Below the pieces are notes generated by a model. The model did not search any database, was not told the origin of the DNA, and worked only from the letters and a program-made list of their open reading frames with translations. A DNA stretch of 64,000 nt from the IMG/VR virus record IMGVR_UViG_3300028653_000010; one strand, given 5' to 3'. Shown one piece after another: positions 8,612-12,869 of this stretch; position 1 is the stretch's first letter, and every line of letters starts with the position of its first letter. This DNA is from a virus. Both the position numbers and the translations under genes were made by a program.

Positions 8612-8675
8612 CCTAAAAGGACTCCCTAACCTGGGACATTAGCGAGTGATCATAATCCTCGCTTTTGGTCGAAAG
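8612..8675 (-). promoter_or_regulatory. conserved structured leader element, copy a (TTAGCGAGTG-N9-CCTCGCTTTTGGTCGAAAG)
   Basis: About 65 nt are homologous to 12792-12869. The core hairpin AGCGAG/CTCGCT recurs at 49159-49186 and 49279-49310. Confidence 0.45.
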
Positions 8676-8891
8676 AACAAAACCAATAAATCAAGAATGT
8701 ATCCTGATTCAATGAGATCATAACTCACCCAACTTACAAAATCAACCACTTAGGAGCATTGCCAAGTAAAGAGAAACGGCCAGCTCCGCATTGCACTACG
8801 GTGCTGGCCTATCCCTAACCATCAGCAGCCACACGGCCTCAGTAGCTATGCAAAACCATTCAGCTCCGAGCGCTCCAGACGATACTCTAGG

Positions 8892-9221
8892 CTACACCTC
8901 TCCGGGTGCCCAAGGCCACTCTGGTAGGTCAATTAACTTCCCAACAAGGTCGTGACTGCAGTCCCCGTGGTACTGAATCTTCCCGGCCGTAAGGTTCAGA
9001 TGACACCGGTGCTGCTTCGGGTCCGGGTGATTAGGGCAAGTGTTCAGCAATGAAGGACTGAACGTAGGGCTCTCTTGGTTCCCATCGAACGCCCAGACGA
9101 CGGTCCCCGTCGTGTAAAATATGTGTGCCCCGTCGCACCCGGGGCAGAAGAATGCGTACCCGCGAAGTTTCCCTGTGTCGTCTACTACCGGCTTGAGCTT
9201 CATACTTGTTCTATTCCACAA
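8892..9221 (-). CDS. hypothetical Cys/His-rich protein (109 aa)
   Basis: ORF track; motifs CPGC...HRCH...GDCSHDL suggest metal binding. Confidence 0.45.
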   Translation of the reverse strand: MWNRTSMKLKPVVDDTGKLRGYAFFCPGCDGAHIFYTTGTVVWAFDGNQESPTFSPSLLNTCPNHPDPKQHRCHLNLTAGKIQYHGDCSHDLVGKLIDLPEWPWAPGEV

Positions 9222-9225
9222 GTGA

Positions 9226-9576
9226 TTGTGCTACTGTGCAGGGATGCTGGAACCTCATCGAGTAGAAGGAACCACTGAGAAAACAGTAAACCTAACCGGG
9301 ACGGTATTCCCGTGGGATGGAACCCAACCTCACTTCTTTATGATGCCCGGATCCAACTATCAGTACCTGCCTTGCTTCACCGATGTCGACAAGCTCAGGG
9401 ATATGATGGATCGGCTGCATATACAGAGGTACACCATCAAACAGGTTGAAGATGGTCCTGACTTTTTGACCAGCTTTGATGTCCCAGGGGCAGAGCATAT
9501 CAAGGTGGTCCTAGATCCACACTTCATTGAGGGCGGTAGAGTACGCTTCACCCAGGTTGTACCCAACGCCAACTAA
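9226..9576 (+). CDS. hypothetical protein (116 aa)
   Basis: ORF track; strong hairpin 9589-9624 lies just downstream. Confidence 0.45.
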   Translation: MCYCAGMLEPHRVEGTTEKTVNLTGTVFPWDGTQPHFFMMPGSNYQYLPCFTDVDKLRDMMDRLHIQRYTIKQVEDGPDFLTSFDVPGAEHIKVVLDPHFIEGGRVRFTQVVPNAN

Positions 9577-9588
9577 TGGATAAGGAGA

Positions 9589-9624
9589 AGGCCAGGTTCC
9601 TGACTTGTGTCAGGAACCTGGCCT
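9589..9624 (+). terminator. GC-rich 16-bp-stem hairpin (aggccaggttcctgac-ttgt-gtcaggaacctggcct); possible terminator with no U-tract
   Basis: Perfect inverted repeat read directly from the sequence. Confidence 0.4.
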
Positions 9625-9760
9625 CGGTTCCCCACCGAACACGGAAGCTGGGCATCTCACCAGGGAGAGGGTGCGCACAACAACCCCTGGACTATCGACC
9701 GCTAAGCCGTCGGCTAAGTACTATCTACACCGGAGACCTTTTGAGTTCAAATCATTTCAA

Positions 9761-9805
9761 TTCCACTAATTAGACACATGATGATCATGTGTCTAATTAG
9801 TGGAA
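9761..9805. repeat. 45-bp perfect palindrome (22-bp arms, 1-nt centre)
   Basis: ttccactaattagacacatgat g atcatgtgtctaattagtggaa. Confidence 0.9.
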
Positions 9806-10083: not shown

Positions 10084-10372
10084 GCGGTTCTCTTAGCTTC
10101 AAGAACTCTCTAAAGCACTTGAGGCACCCTTTCTTCCCATCCGGACTCTCAATGTGGCTGACCGTCAACTCGCCGCACTTGTCACATCGAACGGGCTCGA
10201 CTTCGACACCTTCCCGGATACTCATTATTGTAGTGAGTATCGGTGGGCCATTACTTCCTACTTCATACAGCTCTCGCACAAGCCCAACTTCAACCTGTGG
10301 TGCTTCAGCACCACAGGTTACACATTGAGTTTCACCGTACGGGATCGCACATACCGTACACTTGGCCGTCAT
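9998..10372 (-). CDS. hypothetical zinc-ribbon protein (124 aa; four CxxC pairs)
   Basis: ORF track; CTVC...CVTC...CDKC...CLKC. Confidence 0.45.
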   Translation of the reverse strand: MTAKCTVCAIPYGETQCVTCGAEAPQVEVGLVRELYEVGSNGPPILTTIMSIREGVEVEPVRCDKCGELTVSHIESPDGKKGCLKCFREFLKLREPLSQIPEPTLPGRLSSTDLPLQVDSAKVL

Positions 10373-10740
10373 CAGGAGGCTTCCTGCTTCTCTCGAGTCT
10401 TAGCCCCAGGTCCGTGTACGGTCGCCACCAAACCACCGGTTGCCGCACAGATACTCGTAGTGAACTTGGCCTTTAGCTTGCGTGATGCCGGTTTAGCTCC
10501 AACTACTAGCGGGGCCCCTGTAATAGGATTTCTGCGTATTCTTTCAGGTTGAGGCGCCCGGTACTTCGATGTGATCTTGACCACCCCAGGTATCACCACC
10601 GTCGGAACCCCACCGCTATCAGCGTTAAGCGCATCAGTAATGGCTGCAGCTTGAGCCTGTAAGAACTCTTCAACCTTGGATTTACCCATCCAAGGGAGCC
10701 TTCTGCACATCTCTTCTATATACGAAATTCTAGTCTTCAT
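10372..10740 (-). CDS. HU/IHF-family DNA-binding protein
   Basis: ...GVVKITSKYRAPQPERIRRNPITGAPLVVGAKPASRKLKAKF matches the HU signature R-x-R-x-G-R-N-P-x-T-G...FK-x-x-K-x-LK. Confidence 0.65.
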   Translation of the reverse strand: MKTRISYIEEMCRRLPWMGKSKVEEFLQAQAAAITDALNADSGGVPTVVIPGVVKITSKYRAPQPERIRRNPITGAPLVVGAKPASRKLKAKFTTSICAATGGLVATVHGPGAKTREKQEAS

Positions 10741-10778
10741 AGCTTACCAGTGACAATACTACACCAGTAAGCGAGTTT

Positions 10779-11462
10779 TCAAGGCTTATCATCCACTTCT
10801 TTATTGGATCGAACCTCGTCCACCATCGATTGAATGTAGTCAGTGTCGACGAAGTACTTCACGAAACCATATAGAACCCACACGCCCACGAACCGGTCCG
10901 TGAACCACCCATTAAGGTTGGCCCCATTCTTCTCTATCTTCTTACCAATCCCAGCCTCGGAGCCAAGATACTCCTCCAATACCCAGTCGATATGGTAGTC
11001 ATCATCCTCCCTGACGAAACGGTCCTGGATCTTACGAGCGTCCTTGGCTACTTTGAGGATGGATTCAATACTCGGTAGGTCGTAGACAGCCTCAATGAGC
11101 CCACCCCTTCGAGGCTTCTTATCTGCAAGATCCTCGATGAGTTGGTCAAATTCACTCTGAGCCTTCTTGAACAGCTTGGCGCCTTCCTGAACTAACGCCA
11201 TGAGCTGATCCAGCTCCTGAACTCGTTTCTCTATCCGATCTGCAGAGACCAATATCTGGGGGGCTTCTAACGGTTCTGCCAGCCTTCTGAATATCGGGAC
11301 TAGGTACAAGCACTTGGCCTTGTACCAACGAACTAGCTTGACATCTTCCCTGATGTATACTTCTGCATCCTCAAGAGGTAGTTGATCACTGGTTTCGGTG
11401 AGCCAACTCTCGGCAGCCTTCTTGTAACGGAGCACCACCACCTCAACAATGGGATCTGACAT
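10779..11462 (-). CDS. hypothetical protein (227 aa)
   Basis: ORF track. Confidence 0.5.
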   Translation of the reverse strand: MSDPIVEVVVLRYKKAAESWLTETSDQLPLEDAEVYIREDVKLVRWYKAKCLYLVPIFRRLAEPLEAPQILVSADRIEKRVQELDQLMALVQEGAKLFKKAQSEFDQLIEDLADKKPRRGGLIEAVYDLPSIESILKVAKDARKIQDRFVREDDDYHIDWVLEEYLGSEAGIGKKIEKNGANLNGWFTDRFVGVWVLYGFVKYFVDTDYIQSMVDEVRSNKEVDDKP

Positions 11463-11471
11463 AGCTAACCT

Positions 11472-12701
11472 CTACTCCTTTGCCACGTCAATGAGAACGC
11501 GCGCTTCTTCTGTCATCGGAAGTCGATATCCAATGGCCCCAGCACCACCTGTCGAGACATTGTTGTTGGACCAATCGTCCCCGTCAGCCCCGTTATTCTT
11601 GACATACCAGAAGTAGTTATCACCGGGTTCAATAACTACCCACGTCCCACCCCCATATCCGAGTGCAGTCTTGTCAATCCAGATCTGCTCACCTGGGGGT
11701 CGATGTCCTGTACCTTGTACATAGTACTCTGACTTTGCACAAAGCTTATACAAGTTTCCCTGAGCCTCACGCTTCGTATTAGCCTTTTCACGGCGTATTC
11801 TGGCCGCCTCTTTGACTTCAGCGCAGACACTAGGATCAGAGTGAACCACCTTATAGACTAGCTCGTCCTCATCATTGTCCCAATGGTCTACTAAGTAACC
11901 ATCACCAGCATCTACCCACGCCCCGCAGTTTAAGCAATGATCCCCTCTACGATTAGGCCTCTTCGCTTTCTCGGTAGGTGTCCTCTCCACCTTTTCAGCC
12001 TTCCATTTCTCAGCTCTCGCCCGCTCTTCACTCTCGAGATACTCAATTAGCTTCTTTACTTGAGCTTCCTTAACCTGATGGACTGGAGCCCACCAGAAAC
12101 TCCCTTGACCATTGAATGTTACCGGTACCAGCTTTTTGATATCATCCTTGAAGTCATAGGTCTTTCCAGAGACTACGAACAAGTAGCTCCCGTTATTGGT
12201 CCCCACGTTAATCTGCAAGCTCGGGAACTTGCGCGGAATTATACTAGACAGATCAGCAAGGGACTTGGCCACAAGCCTACCCTGGTCCTCAATCGCGTCC
12301 AGGAGCTTACTAAACTCTACTGGTTTGATATTCTGCACATAGAACTTCGAGAACTCTGGGCCATAATCCCCACCAGACATGTTAATCAACACCCTCAGAT
12401 CAGTAAGAGCTCCTGTCAATTGAGCACCATCGACCCCGATGGGACTAAAGATCAATCCAGTAACCCGTATATGGATCGCTTTACTGAGCAGCTTTTTGGC
12501 TTCCTCAATCCTGACCGCCTTAGCATCCGCTGGCTCTTCCACCTTCACAGGGTTGGGGCCAAATTTCCCATTGACCGCATCAACCTTCTTCTGAAGATTC
12601 TTAATCTTCAGAGGGGTCATTTTCGCTTTGGATTCCCACCAAGTGTGGTCATGACCGCGATACTCGAATTTCCCACGTAGGTAAGGGATCAAGTCCTTCA
12701 T
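11472..12701 (-). CDS. hypothetical protein (409 aa)
   Basis: ORF track; it has a ~130-nt 5' leader that contains conserved hairpin element copy b. Confidence 0.55.
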   Translation of the reverse strand: MKDLIPYLRGKFEYRGHDHTWWESKAKMTPLKIKNLQKKVDAVNGKFGPNPVKVEEPADAKAVRIEEAKKLLSKAIHIRVTGLIFSPIGVDGAQLTGALTDLRVLINMSGGDYGPEFSKFYVQNIKPVEFSKLLDAIEDQGRLVAKSLADLSSIIPRKFPSLQINVGTNNGSYLFVVSGKTYDFKDDIKKLVPVTFNGQGSFWWAPVHQVKEAQVKKLIEYLESEERARAEKWKAEKVERTPTEKAKRPNRRGDHCLNCGAWVDAGDGYLVDHWDNDEDELVYKVVHSDPSVCAEVKEAARIRREKANTKREAQGNLYKLCAKSEYYVQGTGHRPPGEQIWIDKTALGYGGGTWVVIEPGDNYFWYVKNNGADGDDWSNNNVSTGGAGAIGYRLPMTEEARVLIDVAKE

Positions 12702-12791
12702 CTTGTCATAAGGCCCAGAGACTTCAATCCTTCCGTCAACTTCCTTTACGGAGATAGGCGCTGATGCCTCGATGAATCTTGACGCTACTCT

Positions 12792-12869
12792 CTCTTTGCC
12801 TCAAAAGTATGAGACCCTCCTAACCGGAGGCTTTAGCGAGTGGTCGTAACCCTCGCTTTTGGTCGAAGG
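12792..12869 (-). promoter_or_regulatory. conserved structured leader element, copy b
   Basis: tctttgcctcaaaag...ttagcgagtggtcgtaaccctcgcttttggtcgaagg is homologous to 8612-8675. Confidence 0.45.

Follow-up and report, generated by a model that had tools for sequence, protein, structure and literature searches.

The virus record IMGVR_UViG_3300028653_000010 was analysed over a stretch of 64,000 nt (hereafter the window), which contains four copies, a to d, of a hairpin motif of the form AGCGAG-N-CTCGCT. An original prediction had regarded this motif as a common leader element of three otherwise unrelated minus-strand genes, one of which encodes a Cas12-like effector. Comparison with related loci points to a different arrangement. 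Copy d appears to lie in the trans-activating CRISPR RNA (tracrRNA) of a phage-encoded type V CRISPR system, copies a and b appear to have reached two other genes when an IS903-like miniature inverted-repeat transposable element (MITE) with a tracrRNA-like module landed there, and copy c is probably a solo duplicate at the start of the effector gene. The proposed common leader is therefore abandoned, whereas the tie that had been suggested between the Cas12-like gene and the other loci stands. As an explanation of the whole, it is considered probable, with room for doubt, that the hairpin is a handle by which the effector is bound and that the MITEs spread a mimic of the tracrRNA.

The hairpin and the tracrRNA of the CRISPR locus

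The AGCGAG..CTCGCT pattern lies at 8641-8663 (a), 12835-12857 (b), 49160-49182 (c) and 49281-49303 (d), four occurrences where 0.03 were expected, and none of 100 shuffled sequences contained four; this count confirmed the four places listed originally. All copies have the same orientation and the common sequence AGCGAGTG-N8-CCTCGCTTT. As scored, the layout is AGCGAG-TG-N8-C-CTCGCT-TTT in each of them, and a covariance model of the longer element matched the window at these four places only. The hairpin, termed H2, folds into an invariant outer stem of 6 bp, a 1-nt bulge, a covarying inner stem of 3 bp and a tetraloop, and is thus more elaborate than the single arm noted originally. The corresponding minus-strand features are 8641-8665 for copy a (from the pattern count and the H2 comparison), 12835-12859 for copy b, 49160-49184 for copy c and 49281-49305 for copy d. 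Among the copies, the inner stem is formed by GAU/AUC, GGU/ACC, GAA/UUC, GGA/UCC or GCU/AGC; in gene sense, copy a has the first of these sets, b and c the second, and d the third. An alignment of 17 distinct H2 versions, made up of the window copies and those from related loci, showed 98.7% of cells paired and 10 cells with compensatory changes, and its covariation score was matched by none of 500 shuffles, nor by slid controls. The covariance comparison thus supported the structure. The Rfam search yielded no curated family at its gathering score across the whole window.

The hairpin is a structured RNA motif of the minus (gene-sense) strand, as is indicated by its G:U pairs and by folding energies. 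In several stems, G:U pairs form when the minus strand is read, and the plus strand would have A:C mismatches in their place. The hairpin of the related locus L087 reads AGCGGG/CUCGUU in gene sense, i.e. with two G:U pairs, and the inner stem of one MITE copy in L084 (L084m) is GGU/AUC, which includes another. Among the companion hairpins described below, U:G is found in H3 of three sequences, and U:G or G:U pairs are present in H1 and H0. Moreover, the folding energy of the 91-nt RNA of MITE b is -33.7 kcal/mol (z = -4.2) in gene sense, compared with -27.4 kcal/mol (z = -1.8) for the plus strand. These findings bear out the earlier reading of a structured element in gene sense. On the other hand, the suggestion of a weak plus-strand terminator or insulator, in which the hairpin and its T-run would halt antisense transcription, can hardly be credited. 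TTT(T) does follow the hairpin on the plus strand, but the run comprises only 3-4 T instead of at least five U, it is not conserved at c and d (TTTA), and a terminator scan lists neither site. The A:C mismatches and the weaker plus-strand fold speak against a terminator as well, and the motif forms part of a longer conserved RNA on the minus strand.

The larger RNA around copy d was examined in relatives of the locus. Public homologues of the Cas12f-like effector comprise ten close proteins (50-100% identity) and a distant one (28%), and the contigs that bear them are partly 145-473 kb long and therefore belong to huge phages. Eight loci were retrieved and compared with the window, giving nine in all. 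In all eight, a gap of 300-400 nt precedes the effector gene and holds the same conserved non-coding sequence. In order, this sequence comprises a promoter-like site, GAUCAGG, GGRGACCUUCARCC, a covarying hairpin and GGUYCACYCC, and continues with the hairpin (A/G)AAGCGAGG-N8-CACUCGCUAAC, a GCCG...CGGC hairpin and CCCCACYYACUC. In the window, the tracrRNA candidate core occupies 49205-49346 on the minus strand (its 3' limit being approximate) and comprises AUCAGG (49346-49341), the anti-repeat AR-2 (CCUUCA, 49337-49332), a hairpin, H2, the GCCG..CGGC hairpin and the anti-repeat AR-1 (CCCCACUUACUC, 49254-49243). Copy d, which reads AAAGCGAGG-AACAAGUU-CACUCGCU, occurs at the same position in nine loci, and the tracrRNAs of L085, L086 and L089 have exactly the hairpin of copy b. 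A promoter-like sequence, TTGACA-18-TAGACT (49350-49379, minus strand; 10 of 12 matches), precedes the core, and its TTGAC..-10..ATCAGG layout recurs in the MITEs.

Two segments of this RNA could be matched with the CRISPR repeat. AR-1 pairs over 12 bp with GAGUAGGUGGGG in the conserved 3' half of the repeat, and AR-2 pairs over 6-8 bp with the last repeat bases, UGAAGG. The duplex with the repeat in minus orientation (-35.1 kcal/mol) was the strongest among the scanned regions. Both anti-repeats compensate for changes of the repeat across loci: in AR-1, G:C is replaced by A:U at two pairs in L088 and L090, and in AR-2, U:A is replaced by C:G in L088, L090 and L086. Accordingly, the L088 repeat GAGUAGAUGGGA is accompanied by the anti-repeat CCCUAUCUACUC, and the L090 repeat GAGUAGGUAGGA by an identical one; the repeat end CUGAAGG stands with CCUUCAG in L088 and L090, versus UUGAAGG with CCUUCAA in the window. 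Because both segments covary with the repeat, the upstream RNA is identified, at the level of sequence comparison, as the putative tracrRNA of a phage-encoded type V CRISPR system, predicted to be expressed and to bind the effector. With two anti-repeat segments, it has the architecture known for Cas12f-type tracrRNAs from Cas12f structures. Copy d is the central stem-loop of this RNA, between both anti-repeats, and the tracrRNA is the original home of the hairpin.

The locus forms an operon in the order promoter, tracrRNA, effector, 236-aa partner and array, all on the minus strand. The array (45166-46478, minus strand) consists of 19 repeats of 36 nt, GUGUUGAUCCGAUUAUGAGUAGGUGGGGUUUGAAGG in effector orientation, and is degenerate at its low-coordinate end; both this decay of the far-end repeats and the anti-repeat pairing give it the orientation of the effector gene. 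The hairpin itself has no similarity to the repeat, and its identity with a CRISPR repeat or a solitary repeat unit was rejected. In the leader region (46480-46690, minus strand), a TTGACA promoter is found together with a long hairpin, AAAGCGAGAAGGGUAC (46590-46575)...GUACCCUCUCGCA (46518-46506), of about 85 nt, whose base AAAGCGAG...CUCGCA has the same basal GCGAG/CUCGC stem as H2; the leader stem may thus be related to H2. Another hairpin, with the end ..UUACUCGCUCGC, follows the 236-aa gene. Like the leader hairpin, it is conserved in L084-L090 and, in outline, in phage Rctr197k. Approximately 90 spacers were compared with all retrieved DNA, and one protospacer was found: spacer 8 of L083, the 145-kb relative, matches L006, a related MITE-carrying phage contig, at 37 of 37 positions (11059-11095), with the 5' flank CAGTTT. 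It follows that the arrays would target competing related phages. Spacer scans of the viral collection returned nothing or the array itself only, and concatenated spacers had no matches among GenBank phages.

The surroundings of the tracrRNA core contain two more features. A conserved inverted repeat of 17 nt, GTTGACACCAATCGTCC / GGACGATTGGTGGCAAC (49361-49380 and 49213-49229), flanks the core and could be the processing stem of a longer precursor; its left arm overlaps the proximal -35, and a second promoter-like site lies upstream (~49433). Just upstream of the tracrRNA promoters, a mini-open reading frame (mini-ORF) of 14 codons, MPIRYTDIDELYGK (49429-49473, minus strand), follows a strong GAGGAGG, and L084 has a similar ORF.

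The effector is a Cas12f/TnpB-like protein of 579 aa (47405-49144, minus strand), to all appearance a distant relative of Cas12f and TnpB: it matches Cas12f1 of PDB entry 9i8y with E = 4.5e-6 over 138 residues, and the NCBIfam model guided_TnpB (NF040570) with E = 3e-7 and 30 bits, below the curated cut-off of 100. Its catalytic RuvC positions, as placed by motif alignment, appear to have been lost. RuvC-I reads VVIPALND, without Asp at the catalytic position, and none occurs there anywhere in the clade; in RuvC-II (GIDDM), Glu is replaced by Asp; the Asp column of RuvC-III contains N, V, T or I in the subgroup of the window. The family is therefore predicted to bind DNA without cutting it. 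One member is the 'transposase-like protein' of GenBank phage Rctr197k (KX853510), which stands beside an annotated CRISPR. No cas1 or cas2 was found near the effector. The 236-aa partner gene (46686-47396, minus strand) is conserved and always directly downstream of the effector. It encodes 209-236 aa across loci, with a C-terminal coiled coil, and is present at every locus. The protein has no Pfam or NCBIfam family, its AlphaFold model is poor (mean predicted local distance difference test score, pLDDT, 61), and a Foldseek search against PDB returned nothing below E = 2.5. Together, these loci define an undescribed clade of phage-borne Cas12f-like effectors of approximately 550-620 aa, with arrays, a two-anti-repeat tracrRNA and no RuvC catalytic residues, which points to interference between phages through DNA binding.

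The mobile elements carrying copies a and b

Pattern scans of viral and metagenome collections detected the element around copies a and b in other contigs. It is non-coding, about 140-195 nt long and present at 14 independent sites in different contexts, and its conservation ends abruptly at ...GGCAAAGAG. The block shared by a and b is 98-100% identical over 95-150 nt to otherwise unrelated contigs. Within the window, the homology flanking the two copies covers approximately 105-140 nt, so that the stretch of about 65 nt noticed earlier was real but too short. No DNA relatives of the a/b region were found among GenBank phages, and neither the MITE pattern nor the tracrRNA-hairpin pattern occurred in 185,579 species-representative bacterial and archaeal genomes.

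In gene sense, the block starts with the left terminal repeat NGCTTTGCCTCAAAAG, followed by GGTTGACT, a -10-like hexamer 16-17 nt further on and (A)AUCAGG. The hairpins then come in the order H3 (GGUC-UCAUUCYUUC-GACC), H2, H1 (CCUCC-GGNUA-GGAGG) and H0 (GCCUC-UUUU-GAGGC), before the tail AAAGAG. The right terminal repeat, CTTTTGAGGCAAAGAG, is made up of H0 plus this tail; as the hairpins end at this repeat, the transcript would read out into adjoining DNA. MITE b (12792-12931, minus strand, 140 nt) is 99-100% identical to copies in L018, L016 and L070 that have different flanks. Its left terminal inverted repeat (TIR-L, GGCTTTGCCTCAAAAG, 12931-12916) and its right one (TIR-R, CTTTTGAGGCAAAGAG, 12807-12792) match at 14 of 16 positions as inverted repeats, and they enclose the promoter TTGACT (12913-12908)-16-TACGCT (12891-12886) and the hairpins H3, H2, H1 and H0. 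The left target duplication, AGAGAGTAG (12940-12932, minus strand), has TTC before it (12943-12941), and the right one, AGAGTAG (12791-12785, minus strand), has 7 bases and is one AG unit short. MITE a (8604-8763, minus strand, 160 nt) is 98% identical over 150 nt to copies in L050 and L080 with unrelated flanks. It comprises a degenerate left end, GGCAATGCTCCTAAGTGG (8763-8746), the promoter TTGATT-17-TATGAT (8745-8717), the hairpins H4, H3, H2, H1 and H0 and the right end ..GGGCAAAGAG (8604); TTC lies at 8775-8773, and no matching right duplication was found for this copy.

A sigma-70-like promoter adjoins TIR-L in every MITE copy. The 108-aa and 409-aa genes behind copies a and b, which had been regarded as lacking a promoter, are thus provided with one by the MITE. 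Most copies of the element lie between genes and point in the direction of the gene that follows, so that the transcription of this gene is very likely driven or augmented by the element; in the window, this concerns the 108-aa and 409-aa genes. The next start codon stands 0 to more than 160 nt beyond the element, and some loci have no following ORF, which led to the rejection of a fixed translational operator for a and b. The gene at 8892-9221 (minus strand), immediately upstream of MITE a, encodes a DUF6527 protein (Pfam, E = 4e-8), and its homologue in L006 likewise lies beside a MITE.

The MITEs and the tracrRNA have several features in common, namely the promoter layout, AUCAGG and the hairpin with its invariant flanks AAAGCGAGG...CACUCGCUAA; in addition, the MITE segment CCUUCGACC or CUUUCGACC matches CCUUCAACC of the tracrRNA. 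H1, H0 and H3 covary among MITE copies, H1 and H0 being specific to the MITEs. H1 occurs as CCUCC/GGAGG, CUUCC/GGAAG, CUCCC/GGGAG and UCUCC/GGGGA, and H0 as GCCUC/GAGGC, CCUCA/UGAGG and GACCCAU/AUGGGUC. Since H1 and H0 covary, it is the RNA structure that appears to be maintained in the MITE, rather than merely a sequence that was copied recently. The H3 loop (UUCUUU) might in principle form a pseudoknot with the tail AAAGAG, but this was rejected; both segments are nearly invariant, and the b-type mismatch lends it no support. The covariation also bears on the idea that the hairpin is a functionless passenger, i.e. that the MITE took a piece of the tracrRNA gene with its promoter by chance and that the conservation between a and b reflects recent spread. 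A recent capture would agree with the 80-100% identity among MITE copies and with the fact that the b-type hairpin is the commonest tracrRNA hairpin. However, the substitutions in H1, H0, H3 and the inner part of H2 are compensatory or give G:U pairs, and the outer part of H2 is invariant, which implies structural selection and makes a mere passenger very improbable.

Direct repeats of 9 bp flank the MITE, with nine of nine positions matching at nine single-contig sites (in L005, L006, L011, L018, L026, L034, L061 and L084p); a tenth such duplication was deduced from the contig pair L016/L070, each of which breaks inside the element, and the duplication in L003 matches at 8 of 9 positions. In L018, a MITE stands between homologues of 24641-25038 and 25154-25234 of the window, which is empty there (25040-25150), the flanks of this filled and empty pair being only about 70% identical. 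At all 14 independent sites, (T/C)TC directly precedes the left duplication (first position, T 12 and C 2; second, T 14; third, C 14). No other flanking position was conserved among these 14 sites, and the mirror position on the right lacks GAA. For IS903, the preferred target has been reported as WTTYA-N9-TRAAW (PMC2577343, Table 1). A TTY half-site by the duplication would be in character for an IS903-type transposase, but this does not account for a motif that is strictly one-sided and always oriented alike; of the symmetric motif, only the left half-site is present at MITE insertions. The left end of the MITE, GGCTTTG, and the 9-bp duplication are as in an E. coli IS903-like copy (L098; inverted repeats GGCTTTGTTGAATAAATC, duplication GGTTAACTA), and the right end, CTCTTTG, is a partial match to an IS903-type terminus. 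No further terminal-repeat copies were found in the window, and a 16-mer terminal-repeat scan of the viral collection returned one known copy and chance matches only.

A candidate for the enzyme that moves the MITEs in trans is encoded in the same genome. At 63483-64000 (minus strand), the C-terminal part of an IS5-family (IS903-type) DDE transposase (Pfam DDE_Tnp_1, E = 4e-18) runs off the window; this part is 25% identical to the E. coli IS903-like transposase. The complete gene, of 410 aa, is present in the near-identical contig L099 (8916-10148), and the best NCBIfam match of its product is transpos_IS5_2 (NF033579, E = 4e-32), the same model that the IS903-like transposase matches. The L099 gene lies behind the consensus leaderless promoter of the phage (10150-10190), and no recognisable inverted repeats or MITE-like ends surround it; the gene appears to be domesticated. 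That promoter, on the minus strand, has the form GTTGAGAT-N13-CTCGCGCGTAATAG-N6-7-ATG (TTGAGA-17-TAATAG) and approximately 15-20 copies in the window, for example at 1773-1806, 7128-7166, 16546-16592, 17104-17150, 42654-42700 and 50475-50513. As the start codon comes 6-7 nt after the -10, many phage genes should have leaderless mRNAs.

The available assemblies also point to recombination between MITE copies. The 409-aa gene and MITE b occur in two arrangements in public assemblies from related samples. That of L104 equals the window; L103 and L105 share the MITE and the right flank, and their left flank, TTC CCTTTAAGC, is different and equals the locus type of L061. The difference begins exactly at the left end of MITE b, which indicates that MITE copies at different loci may recombine and swap flanks. 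Such recombination would account for the unmatched flanks of window copy a, L080, L084m and L073, and for the many contigs that end inside the element (L016, L070 and L106-L109).

The one-sided target motif could also be read in another way, in which the MITE transcript resembles a transposon omega-RNA or a single-guide RNA. Its tracr-like 5' part, H2, and H0 as a mini repeat:anti-repeat duplex would form the scaffold, flanking DNA read through the right end would be the guide, and the (T/C)TC ahead of the duplication would be the protospacer-adjacent motif (PAM) or target-adjacent motif (TAM) of the effector. The complex would then recognise MITE-free alleles, composed of TTC, the duplication and the right flank, in co-infecting phages and lead to homing or to RNA-guided insertion by the DDE transposase. 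AUCAGG, CCUUCGACC and H2 are indeed common to MITE and tracrRNA, conservation stops exactly at AAAGAG with variable flanks beyond, and TTC accompanies all 14 sites, always on the same side and oriented alike, the other side being without GAA. The sole protospacer has a T-rich 5' flank, and a dead effector, a transposase and MITEs coexist in one genome. Several findings are nevertheless difficult to reconcile with such a guide. Cleavage-driven homing is unlikely for an effector without RuvC catalytic residues, the flank of the sole protospacer is TTT rather than TTC, and none of the approximately 90 spacers matches a MITE flank. In addition, an insertion 9 bp from the PAM would fall inside the R-loop, the tail AAAGAG is unlike the repeat end UGAAGG, and the TTY preference of IS903 by its 9-bp duplication (PMC2577343) explains most of the motif without RNA. 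A guide-bearing MITE is therefore judged improbable, and there is an equally small chance that the MITE is a selfish hitch-hiker on the effector, which takes its guide from the flank and directs transposase or recombination to TTC-flanked empty alleles. If true, DDE transposition or homing guided by RNA would exist beyond the Tn7 family, and the element would be a living intermediate that connects the omega-RNAs of transposons with the tracrRNAs of CRISPR systems.

Copy c and the binding partner of the hairpin

The fourth copy stands at the effector gene itself. Copy c equals the hairpin of copy b over 25 nt, abuts the Shine-Dalgarno-like GGAAAGG of the effector and lies 15 nt before GTG 49144. 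According to the original prediction, both copies at this gene were placed exactly 15 nt before a GTG; this holds for c, whereas d ends 16 nt before GTG 49264. The latter codon had been taken as an effector start. A reading from this codon runs through the conserved non-coding RNA, as does the gene call P0001 of 608 aa, and homologues begin at the position equivalent to GTG 49144, the effector start; GTG 49264 is therefore not a start codon. A counterpart of copy c was found only in L084, the closest relative (86% protein identity), where the outer stem is kept and one inner pair is lost. It was not found at L083 or L085-L090, among them the six more distant loci. As only the window and L084 have the copy, with the outer stem kept, it is probably a recent addition that has since been retained, i.e. 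a solo duplicate of the hairpin. Its position at the ribosome-binding site suggests that copy c may be an operator for translation of the effector. Of the roles proposed originally, a binding site for an RNA-binding protein is thus the most likely for the motif in general, and a translational operator is plausible for c, although it does not apply to a and b as a fixed operator.

The hairpin keeps its outer stem and flanks and varies freely at its tip in three different contexts, which argues for one sequence-specific binding partner across all of them. An invariant outer stem with the flanks AAAGCGAGG...CACUCGCUAA and a freely covarying tip would be the handle that such a protein recognises. 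The Cas12f-like effector would be the most likely partner, given that the motif is a constant component of its tracrRNA. Under the account favoured here, copy d would load the effector onto the tracrRNA:crRNA (CRISPR RNA) complex, and through copy c, effector in excess would hold down its own translation. The MITEs are probably mobilised in trans by the IS5/IS903-type transposase of the phage. Their copies of the hairpin would give neighbouring transcripts a tracrRNA mimic at the 5' end, and the effector would bind or titrate these mimics. The MITE-borne copies might regulate neighbouring transcripts, titrate the effector or act like guides. Moreover, the MITE would be portable homology for recombination between phage genomes.

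Several points weigh against this account. The binding of the hairpin by the effector is deduced from sequence, and a host RNase or the 236-aa protein might take its place as the partner. The account does not explain H1 and H0, which are without counterparts in the tracrRNA. The link between transposase and MITE is circumstantial, because the transposase gene has no MITE-like terminal repeats and stands, in L099, behind the leaderless promoter of the phage. The right end of the MITE (..AAAGAG) is an imperfect inverse of the left (GGC..), the one-sided TTC is unlike the symmetric preference of the IS903 type, and the fold of the tracrRNA alone is weak (z = -1.5).

With regard to the partner, the hairpin might be read by the 236-aa protein, by a host RNase (RNase III or RNase E) or by an antitermination or stability factor. 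RNAs that carry it would thereby be singled out for 5' processing or stabilisation, an expression signal that the MITE would simply reuse. The basal GCGAG/CUCGC stem also occurs in the array leader and after the 236-aa gene, which fits a shared signal for processing or maturation; the 236-aa gene is always present, and the conserved 17-nt inverted repeat around the tracrRNA core could be a processing stem. However, the 236-aa protein has no recognisable RNA-binding or nuclease fold, and in studied Cas12f systems (structures 7C7L and 7L48) the central tracrRNA stems are held by the effector. A partner other than the effector is on balance rather unlikely.

Relation to known systems and other repeats

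The tracrRNA resembles those of type V-F (Cas12f) systems in being a non-coding RNA beside a small TnpB-like effector and an array, and in having two separate anti-repeats for the 3' half of the repeat with stem-loops between them. It differs in that the effector is distant from Cas12f (E = 4.5e-6) and without RuvC catalytic residues, the RNA is upstream of the effector and co-oriented with it, adaptation genes are absent, and the central hairpin also occurs outside the tracrRNA. The elements around copies a and b agree with MITEs of the IS903 group of the IS5 family, which are short and non-coding, have GGCTTTG terminal repeats, 9-bp duplications and a TTY-type flank preference, and occur in several copies per genome with a related transposase in the genome. 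The present elements are different from these in their location in huge phage genomes, their interior of a promoter and a tracrRNA-like RNA under structural selection, their right end (CTC.. and not GGC..) and their strictly one-sided target preference.

Short repeats of a promoter and a stem-loop before unrelated genes are known as PeSL cassettes in T4-type phages and as Correia elements in Neisseria, and both are sites of recombination and gene shuffling. The MITEs share these properties, but they carry a CRISPR-derived RNA module and, unlike PeSLs, terminal repeats and target duplications. To our knowledge, PeSLs have no inverted terminal repeats or target duplications, and neither PeSLs nor Correia elements contain a CRISPR-derived RNA module. 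RNA anti-CRISPRs (Racr), which are solitary repeat units, are phage RNAs that mimic part of the CRISPR guide RNA. Likewise, a phage-borne guide-RNA mimic could occupy a Cas protein here; the mimic is one of the tracrRNA and not of the repeat, and it resides in the genome of the CRISPR system itself and on a transposable element.

TnpB-type proteins offer further comparisons. In the omega-RNA of IS200/IS605 elements (PMC10055086), a structured scaffold RNA at the transposon end takes its 3' part from the flank and is linked to a Cas12-type protein, much as is conceivable here. In contrast, the present elements have inverted repeats and target duplications (DDE type), no TnpA and no subterminal hairpin ends of the IS200/IS605 type, and the protein that accompanies them belongs to a CRISPR locus and is predicted to be inactive. 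Of the marks that define such omega-RNA elements, they share only the read-out into the flank. TldR (PMC10705468), Cas12k and Cas12m are also RNA-guided proteins of the Cas12/TnpB family without DNA cleavage, often on mobile elements or phages. The loci described here differ from them by a full array (19-42 spacers) with a tracrRNA and by at least one spacer that targets a related phage, and no Tn7-like genes were seen beside the effector.

In a full-text literature search, no transposable element with a tracrRNA-derived promoter-plus-hairpin module was found to have been described; tracrRNAs and MITEs are each well known, and it is their combination that is new. Parts of a CRISPR guide-RNA scaffold would thus be able to go mobile and be planted before arbitrary genes, which bears on the interconversion of tracrRNAs and transposon omega-RNAs and would provide a natural example of RNA mimicry directed at a Cas12-type effector within the genome that encodes it. 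In huge phage genomes, MITE copies are also places at which recombination occurs and assemblies break, which is of practical value for genome reconstruction.

Other repeats in the window comprise a family of four copies, AGATAYGAGCGGGATCCGGTCATCTGATG, at 33844-33872, 34361-34389, 35014-35042 and 55148-55176, and two repeat pairs, one of 48 nt at 33566 and 35052 and one of 32 nt at 50117 and 51449.

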